Shown here: positions 1 to 64,000 of the stretch, in pieces | Layout of the letters: each line of letters starts with the position of its first letter | How positions within the stretch are numbered: position 1 is the stretch's first letter | Program-made: the position numbers and the translations under genes | The notes under the pieces: generated by a model | The model's database searches: none | What the model saw: only the letters and a program-made list of their open reading frames with translations | What the model was told of the DNA's origin: nothing | Virus record (IMG/VR): IMGVR_UViG_3300028103_000015 | Source: a virus | Taxonomy: Duplodnaviria > Heunggongvirae > Uroviricota > Caudoviricetes | Reading direction: 5' to 3' (one strand) | Length of the DNA: 64,000 nucleotides

Positions 1-1
1 C

Positions 2-349
2 GAAAACAAAGGATTCCAAAGCTGGTGTGCTGATATGTGGGCTGTGCTGTGGAACCTGTGGGTGAGAGAAAAAGAAGTGAAGGTGATTGAAGAAATGGGA
101 TTCAGCTGGGCCCCAGATCCTGTCACTAAGCTTGAAACACACCCCATCCTTCATAATGCAGGAATTGTAAGCACATCTATGGATGGTTACAATTGCTTCT
201 ATAAAGGTAAATACCACCAAGGAACAGATCCTTCAAAGGATGAACACTTGGATGCTGTACTAAATGATGAGAAATCAAAGACAAGGTGCACATGGTATTA
301 CACAAACGAATTAAAAAATCTTTTTAACAAATATAACCTAAACTATTAA
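2..349 (+). CDS. hypothetical protein; the reading frame is open to the window edge, so this is probably the C-terminal part of a longer gene
   Basis: ORF track 35..349. The frame stays open upstream to nt 2. It is co-directional with the downstream operon. Confidence 0.4.
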   Translation, partial: ENKGFQSWCADMWAVLWNLWVREKEVKVIEEMGFSWAPDPVTKLETHPILHNAGIVSTSMDGYNCFYKGKYHQGTDPSKDEHLDAVLNDEKSKTRCTWYYTNELKNLFNKYNLNY

Positions 350-366
350 CCATTAAATTTTTTACA

Positions 367-582
367 ATGGGAGGCATTAATTCTCGTCCTTTAAAAGCTT
401 ATGTCCGCTTCGATGGAAGTGGCAGAATAGTTGCAGGTAGTCTCATTCTCAGAAGAAAGAAGCCCAAGGTAGGTAAGTGGGTGGAAATTCCAGCTTATGA
501 GTGCTGCAATCCAACAACTACTTCAACAACAACTGTAGCACCAACTACAACAACAACTACAACAACTGAGGGTCCTCGTTAA
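367..582 (+). CDS. small protein: 45-aa conserved N-domain (CC motif) plus C-terminal poly-Thr tail; paralogue A
   Basis: 71 aa. LKAYVRFDGSGRIVAGSLIL...ECCN followed by a T-rich tail (TTTSTTTVAPTTTTTTTT). A tandem paralogue sits at 594..800. Confidence 0.6.
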   Translation: MGGINSRPLKAYVRFDGSGRIVAGSLILRRKKPKVGKWVEIPAYECCNPTTTSTTTVAPTTTTTTTTEGPR

Positions 583-593
583 AATTATAAAAA

Positions 594-800
594 ATGGCAA
601 ATCAAAGTAAACTGAAAGCGTATGTACGTTTTGATGGTACAGGACGCGTTATTGCTGGTAGTTTAATCTTACAGAGATTCAAACCAAAGGTGGGTAATTG
701 GGTGGAGATTGCAGCTAATGAATGCTGTAATTATACAACCACTACCACTACAACTGTTGCTCCAACTACTACAACTACAACCACAGCACCAATTGAATAA
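594..800 (+). CDS. small protein with poly-Thr tail; paralogue B
   Basis: 68 aa. About 70% identical to the 367..582 product over the N-domain, with the same ECCN-polyT architecture. Confidence 0.6.
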   Translation: MANQSKLKAYVRFDGTGRVIAGSLILQRFKPKVGNWVEIAANECCNYTTTTTTTVAPTTTTTTTAPIE

Positions 801-802
801 TT

Positions 803-1216
803 ATGGCAAAATCATTATTTCCTTCTGACATGCTGAAGAGTGGTGGAGGAGAAATGTCTCTAGAAACTATAGCTGGGAAGCTTACATACTTTCATGAGCA
901 GCTACATCTTTTACACTGGCAGACAAGTTCATATGCAGAACACCAAGCTCTTGGTGGATTGTACGATTATGTACACGATTTTAAGGATGGGGTGATTGAG
1001 AAACTTATGGGCTACATGGGCAAGCGTCCCAAAGCACCAAAGATGGAACCTCTGTCTGACTCAGCAAGTGCTAGTCTGGTGGTCAGCGAGCTTATGAGTT
1101 TCGCCTCAAGCCTTAAAAGCTATGCTGAGAGCAATGGGTATCATGACATTTCAAACCTAGCTGATTCCCTCAGTGGTGAGGCTGCAAAGACCAAATATCT
1201 CCTAACCCTATCCTAA
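803..1216 (+). CDS. Dps/ferritin-like four-helix-bundle protein (short, 137 aa)
   Basis: The motif string LHLLHWQ..YAEHQALGGLYDYVHDFKDGVIEKL aligns with the Dps ferroxidase-region signature (FHWNVKG...LHEKFEELYDE...VDEIAERI). Assigned by eye only. Confidence 0.4.
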   Translation: MAKSLFPSDMLKSGGGEMSLETIAGKLTYFHEQLHLLHWQTSSYAEHQALGGLYDYVHDFKDGVIEKLMGYMGKRPKAPKMEPLSDSASASLVVSELMSFASSLKSYAESNGYHDISNLADSLSGEAAKTKYLLTLS

Positions 1217-1503
1217 TGATCGTAAGCAAACGATTCTTCCCTCCTGTGATGAACGACAATGAGCAAGCTTATTTTGCTCATCTAGAGGGAGTGATAAGTT
1301 CCGTGGATGAATTAAGCACCCTTGAGATAACCAAGAACCCCCACTCTTATCACTTTAGGTTGGTACCCAGTGTACCGATGTATAACCAAATGCTGTTAGA
1401 AGAGATATTAAAACTACATAATGTGTTCCAAATCAAGCTCAAGCTATCCAAGAGCATCAAGAGTTCAGCAACCATAGCATTCGAGATAAGTTTGGAAAAT
1501 TAA
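1216..1503 (+). CDS. hypothetical protein
   Basis: 95-aa ORF. Tightly packed in the operon: its ATGA start overlaps the upstream stop. Confidence 0.5.
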   Translation: MIVSKRFFPPVMNDNEQAYFAHLEGVISSVDELSTLEITKNPHSYHFRLVPSVPMYNQMLLEEILKLHNVFQIKLKLSKSIKSSATIAFEISLEN

Positions 1504-1514
1504 TAACATGTACA

Positions 1515-1522
1515 TATATTTG
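1515..1522 (+). promoter_or_regulatory. TATATTTG, a Bacteroidetes-type -7 promoter element (TAnnTTTG)
   Basis: Exact match to TAnnTTTG, about 25 nt upstream of the ATG at 1547. Confidence 0.3.
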
Positions 1523-1546
1523 TACCAACCAAAAAAAATAAATAAT

Positions 1547-1783
1547 ATGGCAACTTACGATCCTAGTAAACGTTACACCTGGACTCCTAATGATAAGTTT
1601 GAATTCACAGGAGCAGAATTTGGTCTCATTCTGAACGCATTTCGTGCTGTTCTGAACACAGAAGAAGCTGCAAAGATTCTTCTAGCTAATGAAGCTAACC
1701 AAGTGGTAGAGCGTGCTCTTGCAGCAGCTGTTGAAGCTGATGTTGTTAAAGAAGCAGAAGAGATTAAGCAAAGCGGTTTGTGA
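1547..1783 (+). CDS. hypothetical protein (78 aa, acidic, Ala-rich)
   Basis: The ORF 1508..1783 is trimmed to the internal Met at 1547 (MATYDPSKRY), which lies downstream of the -7-like motif. Confidence 0.5.
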   Translation: MATYDPSKRYTWTPNDKFEFTGAEFGLILNAFRAVLNTEEAAKILLANEANQVVERALAAAVEADVVKEAEEIKQSGL

Positions 1784-1861
1784 GACTCTGTGGCATCCAT
1801 ATAATAGAACTAGATAGGGACGGTTTATGTCCTAAATGTTTAGAAGAAAAAAACACTTAAA

Positions 1862-2287
1862 ATGGCGAAGATTAAAAAGTATCAGATTGGTGGTAAAGCA
1901 AAAGCTAAACCAGATTCAGTGGAGAGCGAGATGTTTCCTGGGAAGAAAATCCCAAGATCTCAATCCAACTATGCCACTGGTAGAATAGCTAAGATGGCTG
2001 AGGCTGGTAAACCTAAGGTGGTGGCTATTAAGAAAGCAGCTGTTCCAAAGAAGAAACTTGGAGGTAAGCTTGCTAAACAAGCTGCTACAGCAATTGCTAT
2101 GAAGAAGAAAGGCATAAAGCCTAAAATGGATAAGGCTAAAGGTGGTAAAGAGATGATTAAGCGTGCTGACGGAAGCTATTCACAACGTGGTTTGTGGGAT
2201 AATATTCGTGCCAACAAAGGAAGTGGAAAGAAGCCAACTTCAGCAATGCTCAAACAAGAACGTAAAATAAAAGCTAAAGGTAAATAA
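1862..2287 (+). CDS. lysine-rich basic protein 1 (H1/protamine-like low-complexity); first of a tandem paralogue array
   Basis: 141 aa, about 25% Lys. It starts MAKIKKYQIGGK. AK-rich low-complexity sequence with no Cys. Confidence 0.7.
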   Translation: MAKIKKYQIGGKAKAKPDSVESEMFPGKKIPRSQSNYATGRIAKMAEAGKPKVVAIKKAAVPKKKLGGKLAKQAATAIAMKKKGIKPKMDKAKGGKEMIKRADGSYSQRGLWDNIRANKGSGKKPTSAMLKQERKIKAKGK

Positions 2288-2288
2288 C

Positions 2289-2645
2289 ATGGCAAAAATG
2301 AAGAAAGCCCAAGCTGGCTTAAAAGCTTCTACAAAGCGTGTAGGTCCTGTTGATCCTTCAGGAGCATGGACAAAGGTGCAGGAAATGAACCTTCCTCCAC
2401 GTAATGTAAAGACCAAGGTGAGTCTTACAAAGGACAAAGAACAAGGAGCTACATCTATGGCCAAGGGTGGTAAGTGGATTCAGAAGGCTATTAAGAAGCC
2501 TGGAGCTCTACGTAAGTCACTTGGTGCTAAACCTGGTAAACCCATCCCTGCTGGTAAGCTTGCAAAAGCTGCTAAGGCTAAGGGTAAACTTGGTCAGCGT
2601 GCTAGATTAGCAATGACTCTCAAGAAAATGAGCAAAAAGAAATAA
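2289..2645 (+). CDS. lysine-rich basic protein 2
   Basis: 118 aa. Starts MAKMKKAQAGLK. There is a 1-nt gap to the previous gene. Confidence 0.7.
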   Translation: MAKMKKAQAGLKASTKRVGPVDPSGAWTKVQEMNLPPRNVKTKVSLTKDKEQGATSMAKGGKWIQKAIKKPGALRKSLGAKPGKPIPAGKLAKAAKAKGKLGQRARLAMTLKKMSKKK

Positions 2646-3127
2646 TGCCAACTATCAAGAAACTCTTGAAGGTTGCTCCTAGAATGCGCAACACACTTCC
2701 TCAGAATGTAACAAAGGGGAATGGTGTAAAGAACCCACAGAAGGCATCTGCTTACGTGGGAAAGGGTGTGTTGAAGAATGGTGATACAATTGCAGCTGTC
2801 AAGGGGGCTATTACACCCGTACCCAACGGACCATTGATTAAGAAGAAGGGTCCATATGCTGGATCTACACTTAAGAAGGGTGGAAAGGTGACTGTGATGG
2901 CTGGTGGTGAGAAGCATGTTGTATATAAGAAGACCAGTCCAACAGGTGTTGGTAAGGGAAAGAAAGGAAACATCATGGTGAATCATCCTACAAAGGATAA
3001 GGGTAAATGGGACACCATAGATCTCACAAAAATAGGAAGAGCCAAGACTGTCAAACAGGGTGTAGCTGCTACCAAGAAATGGCACAGAGACAATCCTGAT
3101 TATAAATACAAAGGCAAAAAGAAATAA
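2645..3127 (+). CDS. lysine-rich basic protein 3
   Basis: 160 aa. Starts MPTIKKLLK. Its start overlaps the previous stop (TAATG). Gly/Lys-rich. Confidence 0.65.
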   Translation: MPTIKKLLKVAPRMRNTLPQNVTKGNGVKNPQKASAYVGKGVLKNGDTIAAVKGAITPVPNGPLIKKKGPYAGSTLKKGGKVTVMAGGEKHVVYKKTSPTGVGKGKKGNIMVNHPTKDKGKWDTIDLTKIGRAKTVKQGVAATKKWHRDNPDYKYKGKKK

Positions 3128-3129
3128 CC

Positions 3130-3588
3130 ATGGCTAGGATTAAAAAAGCACAGAAAGGAGATACTCTCAGAGCATCTGTTGCCACATTCAAAAGCAGAAT
3201 TGGAGACACCGCTGCTGTAAAGAAGAAAGCAGATTCTCTTGGACTCTCCACTGACAAGGTGAGGAGTGCTCTTAAGGCTAGAATAGCTGCTAAGAAGCAA
3301 CGTTCTGGTGGTAAGACACCAGCTTGGCAAAGAAAGGAAGGAAAGAATCCTTCAGGTGGTTTGAATGCAAAAGGTGTAGCGAGCTACAGAGCTGCTAATC
3401 CTGGATCTAAGCTTAAGACTGCTGTTACAACCAAACCATCTAAACTAAAACCTGGAAGCAAAGCTGCTAACAGACGTAAGAGTTTCTGTGCTAGAATGTC
3501 TGGTATGAAGAAAAGACTGACATCTGCCAAAACTGCTAATGATCCAAACAGCAGAATTAATAAGTCTCTTCGTAAATGGAATTGCTAA
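3130..3588 (+). CDS. lysine-rich basic protein 4
   Basis: 152 aa. Starts MARIKKAQKGD. Arg/Lys-rich, with a C-terminal ...RKSFCARMSGMKK..DPNSRINKSLRKWNC segment. Confidence 0.7.
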   Translation: MARIKKAQKGDTLRASVATFKSRIGDTAAVKKKADSLGLSTDKVRSALKARIAAKKQRSGGKTPAWQRKEGKNPSGGLNAKGVASYRAANPGSKLKTAVTTKPSKLKPGSKAANRRKSFCARMSGMKKRLTSAKTANDPNSRINKSLRKWNC

Positions 3589-3609
3589 CATTTAAAAACT
3601 TAAATAACA

Positions 3610-4107
3610 ATGGCAAAAATTAAGAAATATCAAGACGGTGGTAAGTCCTCCCTTGGTATGAAATCTGTTAAAGCTGGATATGATAAGAATCCTGGTGTAA
3701 CAAGGGCAGACATTATTGTAGCTGCTAAGAAGGAAGCTAAATCAGGAGCAAAGGTTAAGAAGGCTCAAGCTGGTAGCAAAGTGGCTCTTCGTACAGCTCA
3801 ATTGAGAAGACTAGGCAGACTTTCTGCTAAGAACCCAGCTAAGGCAGAACAAGTGGGATCTAAGATGGTAGAGAAAGCTACACGCGTATCACGTGGTAAA
3901 GACTACTTGAAGAAGAACATCAGCAGTCTTATGCCTGAATCACGCAAGGGTAGCAAGGTGAAGAAAGCACGTAACGGAGCTACACTATCTCCTTCTAAAA
4001 AGAGTGTTTCTTCTGAGCTCGGTAGCTATAAGCGTGTAGCTGGAAAGAACCTTTCTAAGATGAAGATGGGTGGTTCTATGAAAAAATGCAGAGGAGGTTG
4101 CTATTAA
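3610..4107 (+). CDS. lysine-rich basic protein 5
   Basis: 165 aa. Starts MAKIKKYQDGGK; the first 8 aa are identical to protein 1. An internal KKAQAGSK repeat echoes protein 2. Confidence 0.7.
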   Translation: MAKIKKYQDGGKSSLGMKSVKAGYDKNPGVTRADIIVAAKKEAKSGAKVKKAQAGSKVALRTAQLRRLGRLSAKNPAKAEQVGSKMVEKATRVSRGKDYLKKNISSLMPESRKGSKVKKARNGATLSPSKKSVSSELGSYKRVAGKNLSKMKMGGSMKKCRGGCY

Positions 4108-4108
4108 T

Positions 4109-4249
4109 ATGAAAGCAGGAAAACCAAAGAAGGCCCCAAAGGTGCCACCACCTAAGCCTATCAATGCCAATTATATGAAAGAGGCTGATACCAAACTTAG
4201 GAGGTCCAGTAAAATGTGGCCCATGAAATCAAAACGTCTATCTAAATAG
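4109..4249 (+). CDS. small basic protein 6 (46 aa; not in the ORF track because it is under 60 aa)
   Basis: ATG at 4109, 2 nt after the upstream stop, and TAG at 4247. Translation: MKAGKPKKAPKVPPPKPINANYMKEADTKLRRSSKMWPMKSKRLSK. Confidence 0.4.
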   Translation: MKAGKPKKAPKVPPPKPINANYMKEADTKLRRSSKMWPMKSKRLSK

Positions 4250-4280
4250 TTATTGTTTCATAGTGTTGTTTGTTTAATAA

Positions 4281-4312
4281 AAGCCTCTTTTATCAAGAGG
4301 CTTTTTTATTTT
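4281..4312 (+). terminator. rho-independent terminator closing the basic-protein operon
   Basis: Perfect 9-bp stem AAGCCTCTT/AAGAGGCTT with loop TTATC, followed by TTTTATTTT. Confidence 0.7.
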
Positions 4313-4318
4313 CATCAT

Positions 4319-4951
4319 ATGGTAAAACTAACATGTATATGTCCTGTGTGGAAAAGACCACAGAGAACTATCAGAGCCATAGAGTCTGTTGTAGCCCAGA
4401 AGTTTGATGGTTGGGAGGCGCTGTTTATTGGAGACAAATGCCCAGAGTTTCAAAAGAATATTGACGAGGGTGTATTTAAGAAATACGAAGAACAGGTGGC
4501 AGCTACAGGCAATCACATCCTCTTCCATAATATGGATGAACATTTTGGTGGATGGGGACATGGAGCACGCAAATATGGTATTGACATAGCTCAAGGAGAA
4601 TATGTATGCTTCCTAGACAACGATGATGTCCTATTACCAAATCATTTTGAGAACTATTACAGCTTTATGCAAGAGAATCCAGACATTCACGCAGGCTATT
4701 TTAATGCACGTACAGAGCCCTGGAAAAAGAACAGAACATCTTGTCTATCTAGAGGAGGCATTGGAAATGCAGAACTTATGATAAGAACAGATGTGCTCAG
4801 GAAAAACTATAGGCTAGATCCAGAATATGAACACGACTGGAGACTGGTGGATAGGATGTTAAACTACGGATATAAGTTTAAGAAGAGCAAAGCTGCTCCT
4901 ACATACATCATCATGAGTGTTCCTAACTACCGAGAAACCACTATTGACTAA
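4319..4951 (+). CDS. glycosyltransferase, GT-A fold / family 2-like
   Basis: DxD motif (FLDNDDV). The start is placed at the Met after the terminator, MVKLTCICPVWKRPQRT, a typical GT2 N-terminus. Confidence 0.65.
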   Translation: MVKLTCICPVWKRPQRTIRAIESVVAQKFDGWEALFIGDKCPEFQKNIDEGVFKKYEEQVAATGNHILFHNMDEHFGGWGHGARKYGIDIAQGEYVCFLDNDDVLLPNHFENYYSFMQENPDIHAGYFNARTEPWKKNRTSCLSRGGIGNAELMIRTDVLRKNYRLDPEYEHDWRLVDRMLNYGYKFKKSKAAPTYIIMSVPNYRETTID

Positions 4952-5631
4952 TGATTACAGTGATTATTCCTGCTTACAAGGCAACCAAATACATAGATGA
5001 ATGTCTTGCATCCCTGCAAGGGGCTGAGATATTAGTGGGAATAGATAATTGTAAAGAAACTTTTGACCATTTAGTGGGTAGAACAGACATAAAATCGTTC
5101 TATTTTGCACAAAATGTGGGACCGTTTGTTGTTAAAAACACATTAATAGACGAAGCTTCTAATGATAAAATCCTGTTCTTTGATTCTGATGATGTGCTTG
5201 CAGAGGGTGTGCTAGACAGAATAGAACAGGCGCTCAATATTGTAGACTATATAAAGCTCAATTACATCAACTTTACACACAATATAAATCCTAAAGGACA
5301 TGTAATGAATGATGCTGTAATAGCCATCAATCGTCCTGTGTTTAATGAGTTGAATGGATTCCAACCATGGAGATGTGGAGCTGATACAGAGCTAGCTAAG
5401 CGCCTTGAGTTCAATAAGAAGAAACATATAGTGCTAGATGATGTAACGTATTACAGAAGACTGCATGATAACAATCTCACTCTTAGGAAGGAAACAGGAC
5501 ATGGTTCTGTCATAAGACAGAAATATGTTCAATACATTGCTGCACACGAAAGATCTAAACAGTGGGAAAACCCAACACATAAACACACACAAGGATATGT
5601 TACTTATACAACAACCCATAGAGGAGCTTAA
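4951..5631 (+). CDS. glycosyltransferase family 2
   Basis: MITVIIPAYKATKYIDECLASL plus DSDD (DxD). Its ATGA start overlaps the upstream stop. Confidence 0.7.
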   Translation: MITVIIPAYKATKYIDECLASLQGAEILVGIDNCKETFDHLVGRTDIKSFYFAQNVGPFVVKNTLIDEASNDKILFFDSDDVLAEGVLDRIEQALNIVDYIKLNYINFTHNINPKGHVMNDAVIAINRPVFNELNGFQPWRCGADTELAKRLEFNKKKHIVLDDVTYYRRLHDNNLTLRKETGHGSVIRQKYVQYIAAHERSKQWENPTHKHTQGYVTYTTTHRGA

Positions 5632-6463
5632 AATAGCTCCTGAAGTGACAGTAGGAAATAGAAAGAGATATTCTACAGCCACAGCTGTAGCATGGATAAA
5701 TGATAACAAACTTGTATCAGCTGCCTTTAATAGCAGGAATATATATCTAATAGAGCTGAAAGACGATGGTACATCGCAGATATTGGATGTTATAAAAGCC
5801 CCATACAATCCAGACTTGATGGATTATAAAAATGGTATGATAGTCACATCAGACTATCCTTATTCAGATCAACATGGACATGCGTCCATATTTGATGTTG
5901 TAGATGATAAGATAGTGTACAGGAAGAGCATTACACTTCCTAACACCAAGTCTCATGGCTGTGAGATAGTGGATGATAACACTGTCATCATCACTAGTAA
6001 CAGTGACCACAATAAAGGCTGCCTGTTTGTAGACATCAATAAGGGGATAGTTAAAAGCACCCTAACAAACATGGACCACTATCCAAAAGATGCCTATATA
6101 AAGGATGACAGACTCTTAGTGATATGTGCAAAGAGTCTTCCCCAGATAGGACAAACCACCGTGATTGGTGAGTCTGTGCTCTACCTATTTGACCTATCTA
6201 CATTAAGTAGAATTAGTGAGGTGAGATTTCATGGACAGACTGACTCTCTCACCATGGATGGAAATGATGTGTTCATAACCATCCAAGGAGATGATACAGT
6301 GGCACATTGCACACTGATGGATGATGTATTGTCTTATTTTGGTAGAACTGGTGGATTCAACTTCCCACACGGTATAGATGCCCTAAATGGTAAAGTGGCT
6401 GTCACAAACTATGGAGACAACACTATTAGGATATATAACAAGGAAGAACTAAAGACCAATTAA
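5597..6463 (+). CDS. beta-propeller repeat protein (YVTN/lactonase-like) of unknown function
   Basis: Repeated ...DNTV...NGKVAVTNYGDNTIRIYN-type blades. The start is trimmed to the internal Met at 5597. Confidence 0.45.
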   Translation: MLLIQQPIEELKIAPEVTVGNRKRYSTATAVAWINDNKLVSAAFNSRNIYLIELKDDGTSQILDVIKAPYNPDLMDYKNGMIVTSDYPYSDQHGHASIFDVVDDKIVYRKSITLPNTKSHGCEIVDDNTVIITSNSDHNKGCLFVDINKGIVKSTLTNMDHYPKDAYIKDDRLLVICAKSLPQIGQTTVIGESVLYLFDLSTLSRISEVRFHGQTDSLTMDGNDVFITIQGDDTVAHCTLMDDVLSYFGRTGGFNFPHGIDALNGKVAVTNYGDNTIRIYNKEELKTN

Positions 6464-7102
6464 TGTCTTATAAGAGGATGCTGATGTAGCATTTTTCATG
6501 TAATACATAAACTCTTCACTAGCCTTAGCTTCCTCTATAGAGAATTCCCATGGGTAGTGTCTGGCCACATATGGAAATGTTGTAGACCCTCCACCTATAA
6601 AATACCCACCTAGCCTATATAGAGCAAACGTGGTATCTATTTGCACCTCAAGCGCCACATCTTCTTTAACAGGAGATTTCTGCCACCTGTCTCTTTCATA
6701 CAAATGCAGACGGTTATAATAGGGAGACTTGCTCTCCACCCTCTGCCAATCTAATCCTAACCCCACCTTATTCAATTCTAGGCTGTTCAATCTATCCTGC
6801 AGATAGAGAAGTGTGTCATTGGGTGTCTCTTCTAACCCCATGTCTGGGTCTGTAACAACATATGGACAGTCTTTAAACTGCCCCACTACACCCGCTAACC
6901 AGGGAGCAGCTACCCCTACATTATTATTTAACCTCATTATTGTACAGGGGTTGGTTGCATACCATTCTAGAAGAGGGGGATAGGTGGAGGCATTATCCAC
7001 AATAATCACATCCCCCACCCCGTCATATTCTTTTATTCTCTCCACCATAGCCTTAGGCCATGTGAGCAGATTTCTGTTATTTATTATAACTGGAATGTTC
7101 AT
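6449..7102 (-). CDS. putative glycosyltransferase (GT2-like)
   Basis: N-terminal MNIPVIINNRN...VIIVDNASTYP resembles the GT2 signature. Confidence 0.45.
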   Translation of the reverse strand: MNIPVIINNRNLLTWPKAMVERIKEYDGVGDVIIVDNASTYPPLLEWYATNPCTIMRLNNNVGVAAPWLAGVVGQFKDCPYVVTDPDMGLEETPNDTLLYLQDRLNSLELNKVGLGLDWQRVESKSPYYNRLHLYERDRWQKSPVKEDVALEVQIDTTFALYRLGGYFIGGGSTTFPYVARHYPWEFSIEEAKASEEFMYYMKNATSASSYKTLIGL

Positions 7103-7635
7103 CTCTTTTGTATGATAAGAAGTTTAGCATCGTTTACAAGGGTCATAAAGTGATCACGTCCATCTAACCACTCAGTGATCCTCTTGATAGTATCTTGTCT
7201 ATTGGCATGTCCAGCGTGTAAATCTTCAATAAAATAATATCCTCCTACTCTCAGATCTTCCCATAGTATTTTGAACGAAGCTACAATGTGATCACCCACA
7301 TGACTTCCATCATCAATAATAAAATGGGGTGCTCCACTTTTATCTATAACTCCTTTCATAAACTGTTTGTCTGACTGGTCTCCTATGTATATATTGAATC
7401 CAGACACATGGTTGTGCACATTAGGATCAATATCCACAGCATGTATGTCCAGTTCAGGATTGTATTCTCTCCACATTCTGAGAGAGTCCCCATGCCATAT
7501 TCCTATTTCTAGGAGTATATATCTTCCTGTCTCAGGAATGTACATATCATACACCTGTGTATATCCATGCTTCTCGTAGTGTTCTGTACCCTTGTCAGTT
7601 TTATTACGATTGGCAATTTCTGTAAGTCTTCTCAT
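7099..7635 (-). CDS. class I SAM-dependent O-methyltransferase (TylF/CmcI, Methyltransf_24-like)
   Basis: DKGTEH..Y and EIGIWHGDSLRMW (the SAM-binding GxWxGxS) match the macrocin/cephalosporin sugar O-MTase family. Confidence 0.6.
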   Translation of the reverse strand: MRRLTEIANRNKTDKGTEHYEKHGYTQVYDMYIPETGRYILLEIGIWHGDSLRMWREYNPELDIHAVDIDPNVHNHVSGFNIYIGDQSDKQFMKGVIDKSGAPHFIIDDGSHVGDHIVASFKILWEDLRVGGYYFIEDLHAGHANRQDTIKRITEWLDGRDHFMTLVNDAKLLIIQKR

Positions 7636-7639
7636 AAAA

Positions 7640-8206
7640 TTAGTTGTGTACGAATAACACTTTATTAATTTTCACAATGGGCTCGTCAGGGAACATCTCT
7701 CTGAACTTATTCACAAACCACCCATCAGCATCATATCTAACACCCAGCTCAATCTGCTGAGCTAAGTCTCTACGCGTGGCAAATGCTCCCATGTCAATTC
7801 TCCCATTGGCAGGCTCACATTGAAAATATGCATAGTCATAATGGGAATGCACCATATCCCAATAAATCATTCCTGGATTATTATTAGACGCAAGGGCTAT
7901 TTCTTTTATGAAGTTGGGAGTGTAATAGTTGTCATCTCCCGTCATTACAACATACTGGGCACTGCTCTGTTGCTTTCCATACTCCCTTGGTGTATGGCCA
8001 AAGTTGTTATAACGTATGTTCATCTTTGACCACATGATTCTCTTGTCCATTAAGCTTTGTACAAGCTGTACATTCTCTACATCCTCTGGATTGTCAATAA
8101 CAACGTGTGCCACCCAGTCTGGATGGGTTTGTGCTAATAGAGACAACAACATGCTTTTTAAGGGAACAATGCGATTATATGTTGGAATTATGAAGTCTAC
8201 TAACAT
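7640..8206 (-). CDS. glycosyltransferase family 2
   Basis: FIIPTYNR near the N-terminus and TGDDNYY (DxD). Confidence 0.7.
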   Translation of the reverse strand: MLVDFIIPTYNRIVPLKSMLLSLLAQTHPDWVAHVVIDNPEDVENVQLVQSLMDKRIMWSKMNIRYNNFGHTPREYGKQQSSAQYVVMTGDDNYYTPNFIKEIALASNNNPGMIYWDMVHSHYDYAYFQCEPANGRIDMGAFATRRDLAQQIELGVRYDADGWFVNKFREMFPDEPIVKINKVLFVHN

Positions 8207-8912
8207 AGTCTTTCAGCATTTGTGTGTAGTCGTGATTCCAATGAGGCTTAAGCTCTATTTCTCCTGTAGGTATTTTACCCTGCGCTCTTAAGTTTTCTAC
8301 GTGTAAACTATGTCTTTGTATGACATTGGGTTTGCCAGGAACATCGTGTCCTTGTCCAGACATGTGATATCCTCTGCCTCCCCACATATAAAACCAACTA
8401 GCTTCTTCTTTAGGAGGAGATGCAAAGAGTCTTCCACCATGAGCATGTAAACGTTCTATGAATGTCATATCATATCCAGCATTCTCAATAGGATGGCCAC
8501 CTATGGCTTCCCATGCAGACTTCCTAAATACAATACCAGAATTCCCTATCCATGTAATATCTGTTATTCTATCACCATTAAAGAACACTCCTGGGTTCCA
8601 ATGCATGATGTTCACATCATCTGTGAAATATTTAGCTACATTCTGTAAATGCCAAGGAACAGCAACATCATCATCATCCCACTGGCATATAATATCTCCT
8701 TTACAGATGTCTGTAGCGTAGTTTTCTTTGTCACCAATGGTGCTAAAGGTGTAATCCAGGTTGTATATTCTCACCTGTGGATGATTATATCTCAGCTTCT
8801 GCAGAGGATAGTCATTCACTATAACTAGCTCACACCTGTCTGCAGGGTAGTCCTGCTTGAGGAAAGAATGTAAACTCTCCTCAAGCGTATCCACCCTACC
8901 ATAAGTGATCAT
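8175..8912 (-). CDS. glycosyltransferase family 2-like
   Basis: MITYGRVDTLEESLHSFLKQ and QWDDDDV (DxD). Start trimmed to Met9 of the ORF 8175..8936. Confidence 0.6.
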   Translation of the reverse strand: MITYGRVDTLEESLHSFLKQDYPADRCELVIVNDYPLQKLRYNHPQVRIYNLDYTFSTIGDKENYATDICKGDIICQWDDDDVAVPWHLQNVAKYFTDDVNIMHWNPGVFFNGDRITDITWIGNSGIVFRKSAWEAIGGHPIENAGYDMTFIERLHAHGGRLFASPPKEEASWFYMWGGRGYHMSGQGHDVPGKPNVIQRHSLHVENLRAQGKIPTGEIELKPHWNHDYTQMLKDYVSRLHNSNI

Positions 8913-8913
8913 T

Positions 8914-9216
8914 TTACATGATATTAGTGGCAGCATAAAAACGTTCTACATCTTCTGATTCTAAATAGATTTCACTCTGAAAGGTGTTTCTCTGACGTTT
9001 AACACCCTTCACCTTATTGTTTCTAGGATCTACGTCAGGTACTTCCTGACTTCTTTCATGTAAATCATCTAACAAGACTAACAGTCTTCCATCCTCAATA
9101 CCCACAGTGCGAATCACCTTGTTCATGTTAAAGCTGTCTCTAAATACATTGTACACAGGATTGTCTGGTGTACCGCTCTTAAGCTCCTTACGAGTGTAAA
9201 AGAATTGATTTTTCAT
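8914..9216 (-). CDS. hypothetical protein
   Basis: 100-aa ORF tiling the leftward operon. Confidence 0.45.
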   Translation of the reverse strand: MKNQFFYTRKELKSGTPDNPVYNVFRDSFNMNKVIRTVGIEDGRLLVLLDDLHERSQEVPDVDPRNNKVKGVKRQRNTFQSEIYLESEDVERFYAATNIM

Positions 9217-10035: not shown

Positions 10036-10259
10036 TTTACACGGTTGTAGGTTTTAAACTTGCTCTTAGCATTGTACATGTCAATCAAGAAGTTGAGATT
10101 GTCTTTCCAATCTTTGTATGCTTTCTTTTTGCGCTTGTCCATCTTCTTACCCTCTTCAAACTGTTTTTCTATTTCTTCATGCAGTTCAGGAAGACTGAGG
10201 TATTGTTTATTGAACAGCTTTAGTTCATCTTCTTCGATGTTGAGTATAAGCTTTGCCAT
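10032..10259 (-). CDS. hypothetical protein (Lys/Glu-rich, 75 aa)
   Basis: ORF tiling the operon. Confidence 0.4.
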   Translation of the reverse strand: MAKLILNIEEDELKLFNKQYLSLPELHEEIEKQFEEGKKMDKRKKKAYKDWKDNLNFLIDMYNAKSKFKTYNRVK

Positions 10260-10263
10260 AGCA

Positions 10264-50203: not shown

Positions 50204-51376
50204 ATGGCTGATTTTTCATTAACTACGCTCTTCGTAGTACCAGTAGGGCAAACTGCGCTCCCTAGCTCTGGATCTACGCAAGACCTAACAGCAGGTCAGG
50301 TGGGTATCTACCGTGCTGACTACTCTGTTGCCACAGCTGGTAACATTGCTGCTTCTCCTTATTTCTATATTGCGCAGGGCCGTACCAACACTTATCTGCA
50401 AGGCTCTAAGCGTTCTGATAAGATTAAAGGTTGTCCTTCAGGATCTGGTTGCAAAAGCAACGTAACTGAATGGTATAAAGTGAACGGTTGTCCTACACCA
50501 TTGACTCAAATCACTGATGTAGTAAACTGGAATGTACAATGTGGTGAGGTGGTAACCCTTACACTTCGTGCTCACTCTAGCTATTTAGACACTTTGTATT
50601 TTAACGGTTTCACTCGTTCAGTCACTGTAAATGCTCCTTGTTGTGAGTGTGACGGTAACCCTTGTGCTGCTGTTGATGTTCCTGCATTCATTGATGATGT
50701 AATCTATCATTTGAATTTGCAAGCTCCAGGTAACAACCCTGACAACATCACTTTGTCTGATTTCTATCAGTTCCAAAGAATTGGTAATGATGCAAACGCA
50801 TTCTTGCGTATCACTGGTAAACCATTGACTAAATATGGTCAGCCTTGTGACGTTGCAGCATTTCCTTTCGAGTATGACAGAATGTGGTTCCGTACATTCG
50901 TGTACAGTGGTCCAGCAACAACTGCTGACTTCATTGTGTACGATCCTTGTAACGTTGTTGCTGATCCTGTAGTTGTACAGCGTTCTTCTTACGCCACTGG
51001 TACTTCTGCTGAGATTGCACAATTAGAAAAGAACTTCTACAGCTATCAAGCTGGTTACTTGAAGCATCTTTACAGAATGAATGGCTACAACGAGAACTTT
51101 GAATCTTGGGTGAGCGATGGTACAACCTACACCACCTATTACATCAAGTTCAATGAGTATGACAAGTCTGTTTACAGCTGGGGCGATTATATCAAAGAAG
51201 ATAGCACTGTAATCATTGCTGTTGAAAAAGATAGCGCTGCTGAAGCTGCAATTGAGGCTGTTCTTGTAGCTGGTCTTGGTGCTGTGGCTGATGAGAATGG
51301 AGTTTGTGTAACTACCACTTCTACAACAACCACTGTATGGCCTTCTACTTCTACTACTACAACTTTGATTCCGTAA
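50204..51376 (+). CDS. hypothetical structural protein with C-terminal Thr/Ser-rich tail
   Basis: 390 aa, ending ...VTTTSTTTTVWPSTSTTTTLIP. Confidence 0.5.
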   Translation: MADFSLTTLFVVPVGQTALPSSGSTQDLTAGQVGIYRADYSVATAGNIAASPYFYIAQGRTNTYLQGSKRSDKIKGCPSGSGCKSNVTEWYKVNGCPTPLTQITDVVNWNVQCGEVVTLTLRAHSSYLDTLYFNGFTRSVTVNAPCCECDGNPCAAVDVPAFIDDVIYHLNLQAPGNNPDNITLSDFYQFQRIGNDANAFLRITGKPLTKYGQPCDVAAFPFEYDRMWFRTFVYSGPATTADFIVYDPCNVVADPVVVQRSSYATGTSAEIAQLEKNFYSYQAGYLKHLYRMNGYNENFESWVSDGTTYTTYYIKFNEYDKSVYSWGDYIKEDSTVIIAVEKDSAAEAAIEAVLVAGLGAVADENGVCVTTTSTTTTVWPSTSTTTTLIP

Positions 51377-57399: not shown

Positions 57400-60300
57400 A
57401 TGGCTGAACAGGAACAAGGTAATATTAGGCAGGAATATAATAATGCTACCACTGGTCTTAACATGGACCAAACCCCTAATCAAATACAGAAGGGGAAACT
57501 TACGTATGCATTAAACGCTGCTGTTGAAAACTTTGACTCTAATTCTGTAAACTATCAGAATGAGCCAGGGAATGAACTGTGTGTTACATTCCCTTCTGGC
57601 TTTGTACTTATAGGTAATCATTTCATCCAAGAAAGAAACAAACATGTATTCTTCATCACCAATCCAGACACTGGAGCTAGTCAGATTGGATATATGGAAA
57701 ACAATGATTGCGTCTATCGTGTACTTGTAAATGCTCCATGTCTCAACTTTAACACTAGCTATCCCATACAAAAGGTGGCGCACAAGATTACCAACTGCAC
57801 CACTGAGATATATTGGACAGATGGTTACAATCCCAGAAGATACCTAGACATTGACAACATTCCTAAGGTGTTGAAGTCTGGCACTCCTTTCTGCCATCCT
57901 GAGTATACAGACGATCTAGACTGTAATCAACTCAAACTCCAGCCTAATTTCAAGATTCCTCAACTGGATGTAACAGATGTCACTAGCACAGGAAATCTCA
58001 CTGCTGGCACATACCAGTTTGCTATACAATACTCTGATCCTCAGGGCAATCCTTACACATCCTATTATTCTGTTACCAACCCAACACCTATTGCTGATGA
58101 GTTTATTACATCAGTGAACTTCAACTATCCTGTTGGTAAATCCATCATCCTTAATATCAGCAATCTTGAGGACAGTGGGCTCTACCAATATTTCAACTTG
58201 GCGGTGATCAGAACAGTGAATGATATCACTTCTGTGGAGCTAGTGGGTACATATTACATTGATAATGTACAAAAGCAAATCACATACACTGGTCAGAACG
58301 TTACACAAATCCGTCTTACCATCAATGATATATTTGAGAAATTCCCTTATTATGATATTGCACAAGACCTGACAACAGCTCAAGATATTCTTATATGGGA
58401 CAATCTTACATCCATTGATCGTATCAACTATCAAAGCATTGCAAATCAAATCAATCTTCAGTGGGAAAGCTGGAGAATTCCTGCTAATGAGAATTACGCA
58501 GATGAATTGAATGCCACCAACCTTAGAGGTTATCTGAGGGACGAAGTGTATGCATTTGAAATAGTATTCTTGCTTAAGAATGGCAAGCAAACAGATGGAT
58601 TCCATATTCCTGGTAGGATAGCAACAAGCTTTGACTTAACACCAGTTTCTCCAGCAAATGATGACTTCATTGGAGAACCTGATCCTTTTACAGGAACCAG
58701 TCCATATTGGAAGATATACAACACAGCATCTGTTACAGGATTTGCTCCTGAATATTCCCCTGCTGATGACTACAAAGGACCATACCAATATGGTCAGTTT
58801 GCATATTGGGAATCTACAGACACCTATCCTTGTAATGCAGATGTTTGGGGTGATTTGGCTGGTCAACCAATTAGACATCACAAGTTCCCAGATATAAACA
58901 TCAGTGCTGCATATGAGTCTAAGATTTTCTTAGGACCTACAGCAATGGTGCAGGGAAATGATGCTGTATTCCCTATTGGTGTACATCTGGATATACAGCA
59001 AGTGGAGGCTCTCATTCAGTCATCTAGTTTGACAGATGACCAGAAAAGTGATATTGTTGGATTCAAGATTATACGTGCAGACCGTGGCACAAACAAATCT
59101 ATTGTAGCAAAGGGCATCCTTAGGAATGTGAATACGTATGAAAGAGAGAAGCAAACCTACTTCTATCCCAACTATCCATACAACGATCTTAATGTAGATC
59201 CATTCCTTAATGAGAACAACAATGCCTGGACACAGATTTGTGATGATTACACAATAGAGATATCGTCTCTTGGTCCATGCTCTGATGGTGGTGCCAACTG
59301 TGCAGAGGTGTTATACACAGATTGCAACAGTAATAAACAGGGTACACAGAAATATTATTCTACAGGAACATACCATTTATGTTCTACAAGCAAGCCTTTG
59401 GTGTTATCCCCTGCAACAGGAAGAACAGGACTTTCTACATATGATGTTTGGGTGGCAACAATATGTCCTCCTACATTTTTAAAGACAGGTAATAGGATAG
59501 AATGGGTTGATATATACAACGGACCTTCTACAGAATGGATAACAGGATGGCCAAATGTAGAAACATTTACATTCAATGCAGTTCCTGGAACAATCCCAAA
59601 GGTGATAGAAGGAACACCTGATAATATATGTTTCACTGGTCCTACACGTGTCACTGGTCCTAATTGTAAAATAGAAACTCCACAGCACGCTGTAACAGAG
59701 AAGTACAGACAGATATTCAACTCTCCTGAAACTTCCTTTGGACAGCCATTCTTAGGTGGTATTCTGAAGCTTGAGAGTGTAATGTTTGGTGGTGGCAAGG
59801 CCCATTTTGTTGAGGTGAAGAGCAATGCTAAATACAAGCTCTTGACAGAACAAGCTCAGGTGGATGCTCTTAACAGTTCTAATAAACTAGGTGCTCTCAC
59901 CACACCGTTTAGTGCCACTGCTATGTTCACCACATATCAGGCATATTTGACAATCTATGTAAACGGTATCACCAGAAAAAACTATGCTTATTCTTTCAAC
60001 TCTGTAGCTGATTACAACTATGGTGTTGGAGTTCCTGACAACCTTGGTATAAAGCAGAGAAACTTAGACATTGCTAGATATTTGATTCCTGGTGTGCAGA
60101 ATGTTGGTGATGTATACAACATCAACAACTTCCAGAGGGAATCATCTGTATATTTGAGAACTGATCTAGACAGACCAGCGCTTCCTTTCCCAGACCAAAG
60201 TCCTAACATGGTGTCTTCAGGAAGTCCTTTGGTTACAGACAAGTCTAGATTCACCATATCAGAGATTGGTAACTGTGATGTTCCTGGTAAGGAAGAAGAC

Positions 60301-63174: not shown

Positions 63175-63699
63175 ATGGCACAGACAGTATTAATAGTATT
63201 AACCACAGCAGGAACTAACACAGGCCCCTTTAGCCTGTATTCAAATGTGGACGGATTTGTAACACCGTTTGAACTTGGTGTATCTAAGGCAGCTCTTGAA
63301 GCTGGGTACACTTCGTTTCTTGTCCCTGATGGTGCAACCATAATCAGAGTGAAGTCTAATGGTGTATGTACAAACTACATAGATATTCCTTTTGGTATAA
63401 CCACAACCACCACAACATCTAGTAGTACAACCACCACTACGAGCACCACTATTTCAACCACATCCACCACCACTACAACTTATTGTCAGTCTATTGGTGC
63501 AGGAGCTGGTTGCTTCAACTGGAACTTTACAGCAGGTGGAACAGGAGCAATTGTACAATGGACAGATTGTAATGGTAACAACCAAACATCAGTGTTGAAT
63601 GAAGGTGAGTCAGGAAGCGGATGTTTGTGTGATGGTCAAACACCAAATGTTCTAGAAGGTAGTTTATCTATTATAAGTCAAGTGGGTACATGTCCATAA
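63175..63699 (+). CDS. virion-associated protein: N-domain, then poly-Thr/Ser linker, then Cys-rich C-module
   Basis: 174 aa. Its N-terminal domain is paralogous to the start of the next ORF. Confidence 0.5.
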   Translation: MAQTVLIVLTTAGTNTGPFSLYSNVDGFVTPFELGVSKAALEAGYTSFLVPDGATIIRVKSNGVCTNYIDIPFGITTTTTTSSSTTTTTSTTISTTSTTTTTYCQSIGAGAGCFNWNFTAGGTGAIVQWTDCNGNNQTSVLNEGESGSGCLCDGQTPNVLEGSLSIISQVGTCP

Positions 63700-63999: not shown

Positions 64000-64000
64000 C

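Follow-up and report, generated by a model that had tools for sequence, protein, structure and literature searches.

The 64,000-nucleotide stretch analysed here (the window) derives from an abundant, uncultured crAss-like phage of freshwater. Its best reading, to which we give an even chance, is that the phage encodes a cytoplasmic system glycosylating its own virion appendages on mucin-like Thr blocks. Positions 1-17102 were 100% identical to L086, a JGI freshwater contig, and the comparative set comprised about 130 related contigs. The genome is crAss-like and of the lytic type, and the host is probably a member of the Bacteroidota. O-glycosylation of the phage's own virion proteins on Thr tracts had been put forward in a sequence-only reading; the proposal gained comparative support and survived every test run, whereas its link between enzymes and acceptors is one of guilt by association. 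The features concerned are:

35..349, + strand, C-terminal 104 aa of the predicted glycosyltransferase p35 (phrog_4417; full protein 338 aa, core in the lineage)
367..582, + strand, mini-protein 1: 45-aa N-terminal module, TTTSTTT-VAP-T8 and a short end
594..800, + strand, mini-protein 2, paralogue of mini-protein 1: the module, then T7-VAP-T7
4279..4305, + strand, terminator-like hairpin, 11-bp stem and T run (consensus scan only)
4319..4951, + strand, GT_A, GT2 glycosyltransferase (Pfam PF00535, 3.6e-12), accessory cassette prop-GT_B-GT_A
4951..5631, + strand, GT_B, GT2 glycosyltransferase (PF00535, 6.8e-9), same cassette
5597..6463, + strand, probable beta-propeller, 288 aa (L086 gene call), same cassette
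6449..7102, - strand, GT_C, GT-A-like protein (AF2 model), accessory cassette GT_D-MT-GT_C
7099..7635, - strand, SAM-dependent sugar O-methyltransferase, MycE/TylE-like (Pfam, PHROG and PDB matches)
7640..8206, - strand, GT_D, GT2 glycosyltransferase (PF00535, 9.3e-9), cassette GT_D-MT-GT_C
8175..8936, - strand, GT_E, GT2 glycosyltransferase, inverting-type, lineage core (Pfam, 5.4e-10)
50204..51376, + strand, structural-module protein, 390 aa, with C-terminal TTTSTTTT..STSTTTT tail (phrog_15060)
57400..63162, + strand, crAss muzzle-protein homologue, 1920 aa (crAss_MUZ on a 1914-aa homologue)
63175..63699, + strand, 174-aa protein: N-terminal domain, 30-aa T/S tract, Cys-rich C-terminal domain

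At least eight proteins with long tracts had been claimed for the window; only five genes qualified (those starting at 367, 594, 50204, 57400 and 63175). The description of the tandem mini-proteins as a 45-aa domain with a poly-Thr tail was upheld from sequence. Their module was found in 794 protein-cluster representatives, N-terminal in all, and is followed in relatives by T/S linkers and variable C-terminal domains. The C-terminal third of the 1920-aa protein consists of small Cys-rich modules chained by T7 linkers, with eight S/T tracts in all. In L190, the homologue of 1914 aa is annotated with Pfam crAss_MUZ, and genes upstream of it with CrAss_Ring_1 and Ring_2; as judged from these matches, the tract-bearing protein is the crAss muzzle and would be external on the virion. 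The 50204 protein had no PDB match, and 84 collection blocks contain the 63175 protein with identical sequence.

The window contains 12 Thr runs of at least six residues, where chance would give 0.0016, and their codons are mixed (ACA/ACC/ACT), so the tracts are not a DNA repeat. Run lengths in 4894 locus ORFs had a sharp mode at 7 (94 runs, against 19 of length 6 and 23 of length 8), none reaching 10. The same mode was seen in 150 cluster representatives (72 runs of 7 against 20 of 6 and 23 of 8), with one run of 10. In bacterial proteins sharing the T7-VAP-T7 motif, runs are as long as 34. Mixed codons and the mode at 7 indicate that the tracts are under selection at the protein level, and the tight quantisation of length suggests recognition as a unit. 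Mini-domain genes were present in 46 of the 47 loci reaching the mini region, and tracts of T5 or longer in 42. The remaining five relatives retain GT_E, yet the poly-Thr tails of their mini-proteins are short or missing; in one of the five, L001, the position is devoid of a mini gene, yet the sugar island is rich. Such GT_E-bearing relatives without long poly-Thr count against self-glycosylation on the tracts.

Five transferases had been counted in the window; the end of a sixth, p35 (ORF 35-349), was overlooked. The window edge removes the N-terminal 234 aa of p35, and the complete gene was read from L086. Although its sequence matched nothing in Pfam, NCBIfam or PDB, the AF2 model (pLDDT 93) matched the UGGT catalytic domain (3e-7) and glycogenin (1e-6) when compared with PDB by Foldseek, both of which use a glycoprotein or protein as substrate, and GT8 proteins from giant viruses in BFVD. 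A YCDSD motif is invariant. From this model, p35 is predicted to be a retaining-type glycosyltransferase of GT-A fold, GT8/GT24-like. On the same strand, 18 nt separate p35 from mini-protein 1, 12 nt follow before mini-protein 2 and 3 nt before Dps, and p35 appears to be co-transcribed with both poly-Thr mini-proteins. The terminator-like hairpin lies between the p35..K5 gene string and the GT cassette. The position of p35 directly 5' of the mini genes in a tightly packed string supports self-glycosylation. Of the loci retrieved with an independent bait, 23 had p35 together with the mini genes, eight had neither, and none had one without the other; the pairing may be that of a syntenic block and not a functional one, since the same eight loci also lack Dps and two neighbouring core genes, g1216 and the gene of Lys-rich K4.

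The island at 4319-8936 had been read as encoding five DxD-motif GT2-type transferases. Four exceeded the Pfam PF00535 gathering score used as cut-off and carry DxD-type motifs (LDNDD, FDSDD, GDD and WDDDD in 4319-4951, 4951-5631, 7640-8206 and 8175-8936), whereas the fifth, GT_C, is GT-A-like in a moderate-confidence model only. Searches of Pfam, PHROG, NCBIfam and PDB with the GT_C sequence gave no match, and its profile resembled none of the other transferases. Its AF2 model (pLDDT 73) resembled the GT-A / nucleotide-diphospho-sugar-transferase fold, with glycosyltransferases (ArnC, GalNAc-T2, TarP) and CMP-Kdo synthetases matched equally (E about 1e-4 to 1e-5, TM 0.4-0.5); VDNAS and TDPD motifs are visible. 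Public gene calls place the start of GT_E at 8912, giving 245 aa. The methyltransferase, earlier typed as TylF/CmcI-like, was confirmed as a sugar O-methyltransferase: it scored 26.0 bits against Methyltransf_24, just under the 26.3 cut-off, 1e-21 against phrog_21658, and matched MycE (3ssm, 2e-15) and a TylE-type enzyme (8ia9, 5e-11) in PDB. The beta-propeller is probable, on sub-threshold Pfam matches (NHL 0.006, Beta_prop family 0.005), and had no PDB sequence match. In agreement with the earlier view that the island proteins are all soluble and lack a GtrB-like membrane domain, no hydrophobic 19-mer reached 1.6 on the Kyte-Doolittle scale in any of them, and all are thus predicted to be soluble.

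GT_E belongs to the core of a large lineage and has 952 homologues, with 70-87% identity among the 120 matches listed, and synteny was fixed in loci carrying its relatives (65-87% identity). Its median identity (72%) is similar to that of RecA (75%). Its neighbours constitute a hypervariable island of sugar-tailoring genes: the cassette prop-GT_B-GT_A was found in four of 85 related loci and GT_D-MT-GT_C in about 20, and relatives carry aminotransferase/acetyltransferase, sulfotransferase and other methyltransferase genes, as well as a second cluster (GT9/GT4/sulfation). GT_E lies at the border of the replication/nucleotide module (RNR, RecA, dUTPase) and outside the structural module, a position that counts against self-glycosylation. 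Two distant cultured outgroups (Lbo-JY46 and Cellulophaga phi17:2; TerL 32-39% identity) had neither Thr runs of at least four residues nor homologues of the window's transferase and Thr-tract genes, and this joint absence supports self-glycosylation of the virion, within the limits of a comparison with two phages so distant.

The transferases might instead be auxiliary genes whose products make or modify a glycoconjugate of the host during infection, with cell-envelope polysaccharide, EPS and the LPS core as conceivable targets. Superinfection exclusion or an altered cell surface could be the purpose, and the Thr tracts would be ordinary unglycosylated linkers; we regard this as unlikely, albeit deserving of weight. 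The nearest named relatives of the GT2 enzymes are polysaccharide or lipid-linked-oligosaccharide enzymes (PglI, WcaA, EpsD, HpsN, TuaG), all far under curated cut-offs, and these matches are generic, which speaks against self-glycosylation. Relatives carry GT9 (the heptosyltransferase family) and GT4 genes typical for envelope glycans, PHROG labels the transferases 'moron / host takeover', and T7-VAP-T7 linkers occur widely in ordinary secreted proteins of bacteria. Against a host target, the 273 island ORFs of 73 related loci yielded no phosphoglycosyl transferase for initiation, no flippase, polymerase or ABC exporter and no membrane protein, including multi-TM proteins in the Wzx/Wzy/ABC size range; genes for lipid carriers or export were likewise not found, and the absence of membrane, export and lipid-carrier machinery supports self-glycosylation. 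Moreover, GT_E is a strongly conserved core gene in a lytic-type crAss-like genome, and the second core transferase, p35, is embedded amid Thr-tract and collagen-like fibre genes. That fibre gene, a (GTS)n type with a weak BclA_C match directly 5' of p35, gives some credit to a rather improbable variant in which the enzymes modify phage proteins elsewhere (the BclA-like fibre or the capsid) and the tracts are stiff spacers; some relatives combine transferases with mini-proteins devoid of poly-Thr. The Thr tracts are, however, the most conspicuous and widespread hydroxyl-rich feature, in 42 of 47 loci they flank p35 on the side away from the fibre gene, and their quantised length speaks for unit recognition.

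Very improbable, in our view, is the transfer of sugars to 5-hydroxymethyl-pyrimidines of the phage DNA as protection from host nucleases. GT-A enzymes had been taken as not used on DNA, which is wrong: GT-A-fold and GT8-like phage enzymes glycosylate 5hmC, sometimes serially and often near replication genes (Pyle et al., bioRxiv 10.1101/2023.12.21.572611), so a DNA target is compatible with the fold class. The present phage resembles those systems in its serial GT-A/GT8-like enzymes by replication genes; GT_E abuts dUTPase, RecA and RNR, and the fold matches of GT_C include TarP. It differs in that the defining partners (C5-methylase plus 5mYOX, or a thymidylate-synthase-like hydroxymethylase) were searched for and not found: no gene for a thymidylate-synthase-like hydroxymethylase, for TET/5mYOX or for a C5-methylase was seen in the 64-kb window, with its replication module covered, in the other parts of a related genome of 117.6 kb (a 4.5-kb gap excepted) or in precomputed Pfam lists of L001-L004, L086-L088 and L189-L190. 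The lack of a hydroxymethyl-pyrimidine pathway supports self-glycosylation. The methyltransferase at 7099-7635 is a sugar O-methyltransferase, not a DNA methyltransferase, and the sulfotransferase/APS kinase, DegT and hexapeptide acyltransferase genes of relatives point to a classical glycoconjugate.

For glycosylation of the phage's own virion, we infer that the enzymes act on proteins with the Thr blocks as sites. Two lineage-core transferases would be at work, the retaining-type p35 and the inverting-type GT_E; one of them would add the first sugar to Thr in the T7 blocks, and the other, with strain-variable accessory genes (in the window the cassettes GT_D-MT-GT_C and GT_A-GT_B-propeller), would extend and tailor the glycan. 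Likely acceptors would be the mini-proteins, read as an anchor domain with a glycosylated tail and presumed to sit on the virion, the T7 linkers of the muzzle and the tails of the proteins encoded from 50204 and 63175; the collagen-like fibre may be another.

In mycobacteriophages, the C-termini of capsid and tail-tube proteins bear glycans from phage transferases, according to Freeman 2023 as related in PMC12619734. Che8-type phages are alike in soluble phage transferases acting, as proposed or shown, on terminal tails of own structural proteins. Their glycans are demonstrated, whereas those of the crAss-like phage are predicted from gene content; they are siphoviruses of Actinobacteria, not of crAss-like podovirus type with a probable Bacteroidota host, and there is no homology, GT_E and the mini module having no tblastn match in 50,697 GenBank phage records. 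The crAss-like phage also differs in its putative acceptors, which are T7 blocks of quantised length on dedicated mini-proteins and the muzzle, and it has many more tailoring genes, with greater variation among them. Among giant viruses, chlorovirus PBCV-1 A064R has glycosyltransferase and methyltransferase domains, and mimivirus has fibril gene clusters. They share cytoplasmic GT-A enzymes, sugar methyltransferases, sugar-nucleotide tailoring, clade-variable clusters and GT8 proteins matching p35 in fold but not in sequence; unlike the present phage, they have eukaryotic hosts and no poly-Thr acceptor, and the PBCV-1 glycans are N-linked on capsid protein. O-antigen conversion by temperate phages (GtrA/GtrB/GtrV) likewise uses a GT2 enzyme, and the weak best PHROG match of GT_A is the 'GtrB-like' phrog_22739. 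GtrB, however, has C-terminal membrane helices, and its partners are GtrA, a flippase, and a membrane-bound GT-C enzyme, whereas no island protein has a membrane segment.

The serine-rich-repeat adhesins of Gram-positive bacteria are O-glycosylated in the cytoplasm by GtfA/B and accessory GT2/GT8 enzymes: a soluble initiating transferase acts, before export, on a surface fibre's long Ser/Thr repeats, and strain-variable GT2/GT8 enzymes then extend the glycan. The same logic of soluble initiator and strain-variable extension is proposed here, with the differences that the window lacks a GtfA/B-type GT4 initiator and that the acceptors would be phage proteins, nearly pure Thr in blocks of seven. 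The autotransporter heptosyltransferases TibC/AAH are GT9-like, and protein glycosylation by GT9-type enzymes would account for the presence of GT9 genes in relatives. Hypervariable tailoring beside a conserved transferase, together with a second cluster, is what one expects of a surface glycan subject to diversifying selection. Altogether, with six transferases and a sugar methylase beside poly-Thr proteins, gene content suggests that the particle of this phage is probably sugar-coated.

Sequence evidence places the 64-kb window within the genome of a crAss-like phage, an assignment based jointly on ring and muzzle Pfam domains, PHROG matches for TerL, portal and MCP, the relatives of TerL and giant downstream ORFs. 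The large terminase, portal and major head protein genes were recognized at 40156-48288 by PHROG profiles. Pfam CrAss_Ring_1 and CrAss_Ring_2 were found on gene calls of two related loci (L189 and L190), and crAss_MUZ on the L190 homologue of the 1920-aa muzzle protein encoded at 57400-63162; related contigs carry giant ORFs of 4013-4041 aa downstream. The terminase was closest to that of Leptolyngbya phage Lbo-JY46 (39%), followed by Cellulophaga phages phi17:2 and phi4:1 (32%) and crAss-like gut phages (~26%). Homologues of T4 rIIB (512 aa) and rIIA (766 aa, HATPase_c) are encoded at 17240-21097 of this crAss-like genome.

One related locus (L086, JGI 3300026478) was 100% identical to window positions 1-17102 and L189 was 99.8% identical to the final 10.8 kb, and lineage contigs of 110-118 kb are on record. 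Megablast of positions 1-12000 against 50,697 GenBank phage records gave no near match, and exact look-up of the protein encoded at 8175-8936 returned no record. The phage is uncultured. Its lineage is very abundant and freshwater, with hundreds to thousands of metagenome protein clusters containing its genes. The G+C content of the window is ~40%, and the host is probably, on weak indications, a member of the Bacteroidota. A scan of genome contigs for two seven-threonine blocks joined by VAP (T7-VAP-T7) returned mostly unrelated proteins of Actinomycetota and Streptococcus. Four low-G+C matches (32-37%; L090, L107, L136 and L142) resemble this phage lineage and were binned in Bacteroidia, Sediminibacterium (a 112-kb contig) and Chthoniobacter MAGs; this binning, a weak host hint, is probably an artefact.

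The sugar-related genes form an island at 4319-8936:

4319-4951, plus strand: GT_A, GT2-type glycosyltransferase (PF00535, 47 bits)
4951-5631, plus strand: GT_B, GT2-type glycosyltransferase (36.3 bits)
5597-6463, plus strand: possible beta-propeller protein
6449-7102, minus strand: GT_C, probable glycosyltransferase
7099-7635, minus strand: MT, putative sugar O-methyltransferase
7640-8206, minus strand: GT_D, GT2-type glycosyltransferase (35.9 bits)
8175-8936, minus strand: GT_E, GT2-type glycosyltransferase (39.9 bits)

Five glycosyltransferases (GTs) had been proposed here in the sequence-only reading. Four of them scored above the gathering cut-off of the Pfam GT2 family (23.3 bits) and carry acidic DxD-type motifs (LDNDD, FDSDD, GDD and WDDDD), which confirms their GT2-type character, whereas for GT_C, without sequence match in Pfam, PHROG, NCBIfam or PDB, the proposal is carried by a GT-A-like model. 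Local hhalign revealed no profile similarity of GT_C, or of the core protein p35 described below, to the GT2 genes, so structure prediction was needed. The AlphaFold2 model of GT_C (26 homologues; pLDDT 73) adopts a GT-A/nucleotide-diphospho-sugar-transferase fold, for which the top Foldseek matches were CMP-Kdo synthetases (4e-5) and ArnC (5e-5) alike, with TM values of 0.4-0.5; a B. fragilis GT, GalNAc-T2, GnT-I and TarP also matched. The motifs VDNAS and TDPD, with D85 and D87 invariant, favour a transferase, and GT_C is probably, though not proven to be, the fifth GT. NCBIfam gave only generic GT2 matches far below threshold, and PDB sequence searches were unproductive for GT_C, the p35 profile, the propeller, the muzzle protein and the protein encoded at 50204.

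MT matched the macrolide-sugar O-methyltransferases MycE (3ssm, 2.1e-15) and demethylmacrocin O-methyltransferase of the TylE type (8ia9, 4.9e-11). It reached 26.0 bits with Pfam Methyltransf_24 (cut-off 26.3), and a paralogous island methyltransferase in L050 had a weak RMNT_CmcI match. By these similarities MT appears to belong to the TylF/MycE/CmcI-type sugar O-methyltransferases, and the earlier TylF/CmcI-type label stands. A protein is encoded where a beta-propeller had been reported, with that fold indicated by sub-threshold Pfam matches alone. The island proteins are, as previously proposed, predicted to be soluble and free of a GtrB-like domain: none has a hydrophobic segment, and the maximal 19-residue hydropathy is ≤1.16 in every one. 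The two accessory gene cassettes of the island, described below, meet tail to tail at 6449-6463, where the ends of the propeller and GT_C genes overlap by 15 nt.

GT_E had 952 homologues in a metagenome protein collection, with 70-87% identity among the 120 listed. In the 85 related loci fetched, GT_E copies were 65-87% identical, and the genes stood in a common order: RNR, RecA and dUTPase come first, some small genes lie between them and GT_E, and a variable island follows. Beyond the island are several genes for Lys-rich proteins, one for a 95-aa protein, one for a Dps-like protein, the mini-protein genes (one to three) and finally p35. Median identity was 72% for GT_E versus 75% for RecA; on this measure GT_E is as conserved as RecA. 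Gene content between GT_E and the Lys-rich genes varies among the phages. A GT_D-MT-GT_C cassette occurs in ~20 loci and a propeller-GT_B-GT_A cassette in four, and among the sampled loci only the window's phage has both. Elsewhere the island holds Methyltransf_23/11 or Methyltransf_24/CmcI-like methyltransferases, a sulfotransferase or GT4, in some cases a DegT aminotransferase together with a hexapeptide acyltransferase and a BKACE enzyme, and in some loci almost nothing. Such variation around a conserved transferase is the mark of a putative glycan-tailoring locus shaped by diversifying selection. In most of 48 loci GT_E is accompanied by a methyltransferase, and no simple rule relating island type to tract composition was seen across them. 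One relative (L004:8835-9086, L005:202-453) encodes, two genes before the core GT2 and ~0.9 kb upstream of it, a protein of 83 aa carrying the Acb2/Tad1 hairpin (Pfam) of the anti-CBASS/Thoeris sponge family.

At the other end of this conserved order, the window begins within a string of genes on one strand, separated by gaps of 18, 12 and 3 nt:

35-349: truncated ORF, the last 104 residues (C-terminal) of the 338-aa protein p35
367-582: mini1, 45-aa module with poly-Thr tail
594-800: mini2, 45-aa module with poly-Thr tail
803-1216: Dps/ferritin-like protein (phrog_858; homologues Pfam DUF5856/Ferritin), conserved directly after the mini genes

A strong terminator-like hairpin lies at 4279-4305, only after the Lys-rich genes. 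The latter encode five tandem small proteins (1862-4107; 118-165 aa) that are rich in Lys+Arg (24-29%) and very poor in acidic residues; several of the proteins begin with MAKIKKYQ or MAKMKKAQ. None has a PHROG match and one is Pfam DUF6321; the genes are core to the lineage at variable copy number, and the products could be DNA-condensing or ejected cargo.

The p35 family comprises 2570 members, none of them annotated, and searches of Pfam, NCBIfam and PDB sequences gave no match for it. Its AlphaFold2 model (pLDDT 93) retrieved from PDB by Foldseek the UGGT catalytic domain (GT24, 3.4e-7), glycogenin (GT8, 1e-6) and WbbM (2e-6), and among viral models GT8 proteins of giant viruses. A Y-C-D-S-D motif was invariant in sets of 35 and 30 sequences. 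By modelled fold and conserved DxD, and not by sequence-family membership, p35 can be classed as a predicted GT8/GT24-type retaining GT-A transferase. Adjoining p35, ~0.9-1.5 kb upstream of window position 1, is a gene for a collagen-like 215-aa protein (L086:17987-18634) that has (GTS)n repeats and, at its head, a weak match to BclA_C, recalling BclA, the glycosylated fibre of Bacillus spores. With this (GTS)n protein upstream and the poly-Thr mini-proteins downstream, the core GT-A enzyme, predicted to be of the retaining type, stands between two kinds of hydroxyl-rich fibre protein.

The 45-aa N-terminal domain of the mini-proteins was found in 88 ORFs of related loci and, within a library of 1.84 billion proteins, in 794 cluster representatives. 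Its position is invariably N-terminal, in proteins of 68-604 aa, and it is followed by a T/S-rich stretch of variable length and often by a variable C-terminal domain. One such domain, joined through T/S linkers, has the motif GGYxDWYLPSxxEL (L015:18027-18668, L040:11171-11977, L054:15402-16812, L084:17504-18193), and in L084 (16121-17485) the module is fused to a repeat-rich domain. These fusions indicate that the module is a general N-terminal adaptor, and the architecture reads as a putative anchor module, linker and display domain, of which only anchor and tail seem to remain in the window's mini-proteins.

Dense poly-Thr tracts occur in five genes of the window (367-582, 594-800, 50204-51376, 57400-63162 and 63175-63699), fewer than the at least eight proteins counted earlier. 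Twelve Thr runs of at least six residues were observed versus 0.0016 expected from composition. An origin as a by-product of DNA repeats was rejected: the runs are encoded by a mix of ACA, ACC and ACT, and the DNA is not repeated. The mixed codons thus mark the tracts as a protein-level feature. In the C-terminal third of the muzzle protein, blocks of seven Thr link small Cys-rich modules. The tract protein 63175-63699 (174 aa) has a fibre-like module that appears to be tandemly duplicated: its N-terminal domain recurs in the ORF 63712-64000 (MSKTIIIKLTISGPSAGPFNITDEFGN...), which runs off the window.

The length of the runs is narrowly distributed. Among 4894 unique ORFs of the loci, runs of 4, 5, 6, 7, 8 and 9 Thr occurred 17, 21, 19, 94, 23 and 7 times, and none of 10 or more was present. 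A second, more diverse sample of 150 cluster representatives (P0361-P0510) yielded 72 runs of seven, 20 of six, 23 of eight and a single run of ten. The blocks are spaced by three residues, e.g. VAP, ATP or AAP. Bacterial proteins sharing the T7-VAP-T7 motif have Thr runs up to 34, and the tight limit is therefore particular to these phages; the quantization at seven is a regularity shared by both samples.

Soluble phage GTs are genetically linked to candidate acceptor structural proteins, through the p35-mini1-mini2 string, the conserved synteny, the lack of TM segments and the tract-bearing muzzle protein. Mini-domain genes were present in 46 of the 47 loci that reach the Dps region, and Thr runs of at least five residues there in 42. 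With a lysis-region protein as unrelated bait, 31 loci were collected, of which 23 have p35 as well as mini genes and 8 have neither; those 8 also lack the neighbouring core genes, and the co-occurrence may therefore be block synteny. Complete genomes exist for the two cultured relatives, Lbo-JY46 (125 kb) and Cellulophaga phage phi17:2 (145 kb); they contain neither a Thr run of at least four in ORFs of at least 60 aa nor anything homologous to p35, MT, the mini module or the island GTs. As counter-examples, L001, L019, L021, L056 and L071 keep GT_E and sugar genes with mini Thr tails short or absent, and L001 has no mini gene at the expected position.

A second glycan cluster was found in roughly one third of related loci (~11-13 of 31), exemplified by L198:2-8932 (IMGVR_UViG_3300044950_000141, contig 91.7-100.7 kb). 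Besides three GT9 and two GT4 enzymes, one of the latter 884 aa long, it encodes a sulfotransferase and an APS kinase as well as a cytidylyltransferase-like protein and an FkbM methyltransferase, and it suggests sulfated glycans in the relatives.

That the transferases remodel host glycans is an unlikely reading, in spite of the generic similarity of the GT2 enzymes to polysaccharide and lipid-linked-oligosaccharide enzymes and of GT9 and GT4 being classic envelope families: the 273 island ORFs of 73 loci include no initiating transferase, flippase, polymerase or exporter and no multi-TM protein of suitable size, and some GT9-like enzymes, the autotransporter heptosyltransferases, are known to act on proteins. 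Serotype conversion of the Gtr type was rejected, since the island proteins have no membrane segments and the 273 ORFs no suitable multi-TM candidate; the membrane-anchored GtrB, the flippase GtrA and the GT-C serotype-specific transferase of such systems have no counterpart in the island. Protein glycosylation at sites other than the Thr blocks, a reading to which the five loci with short or absent tails are relevant, is given a small chance, and a further small share of probability is assigned to none of the readings considered.

Glycosylation of the phage DNA is considered very improbable. The earlier argument that the GT-A fold rules out a DNA target is invalid, as phage enzymes of the GT-A fold and GT8-like enzymes glycosylate 5hmC (Pyle et al., bioRxiv 10.1101/2023.12.21.572611). 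Since GT-A enzymes can modify DNA, genes of the precursor pathway were searched for. Pfam and PHROG searches of the replication-module ORFs of the window (exonuclease, rIIA/rIIB, primase, DNA polymerase, helicases, UDG-like protein, HNH) revealed no thymidylate-synthase-like hydroxymethylase, TET/5mYOX or C5-methylase, and the neighbouring-gene Pfam lists of L001-L004, L086-L088 and L189-L190 contained no pyrimidine-modification gene. Because IMG/VR gave only distant matches for the rest of the window's genome, a 117.6-kb relative was walked instead, leaving a 4.5-kb gap and many small ORFs without match. The walked part held three giant ORFs (4041, 1653 and >1409 aa), lysis genes and the second glycan cluster, and no pyrimidine-modification gene. 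The 5hmC/5hmU pathway genes required for sugar hypermodification of DNA were thus absent from the genes searched, and with the gap and the many unannotated small ORFs taken into account a DNA target is judged unlikely.

The most economical reading, to which we assign an even chance, is a cytoplasmic, phage-encoded O-glycosylation of proteins on mucin-like Thr blocks of virion appendages, with a two-transferase core and strain-variable tailoring. A bolder and more tentative version is that this freshwater crAss-like lineage makes its own 'mucins' and would give its virion a variable glycan coat, sulfated or methylated in part. The anchor-and-tail proteins and the distal muzzle modules would carry blocks of exactly seven Thr, and such a block would be the unit recognized by the pair of GT8-like and GT2 core enzymes. 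Strain-specific cassettes for extra GTs and for O-methyl, amino/acetyl and sulfate transfer would diversify the glycan, and the coat would be built in the cytoplasm with no lipid carrier. If true, it would be a phage counterpart to the diversity of O-antigens or flagellin glycans. The system, seen here in genes alone, would work like the self-glycosylation of mycobacteriophages and giant viruses and the glycosylation of bacterial serine-rich-repeat proteins, to which it is not homologous beyond the fold.

To our knowledge, mycobacteriophages are the only phages, and giant viruses of eukaryotes the only other viruses, shown to glycosylate their virions with enzymes of their own; our search found no literature pairing poly-threonine with phage glycosylation, or on Lbo-JY46. 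The compact candidate pair of a 338-aa GT and a 70-aa acceptor may be of use in cytoplasmic O-glycoengineering. If the reading holds for this lineage, self-glycosylation would be common among environmental phages and, in this lineage, would rely on mucin-like acceptors and on diversification of the glycan by cassettes, neither of which has been described before, and it would bear on resistance to proteases and grazers, adhesion to mucus or exopolymers, and evasion of host or immune recognition.
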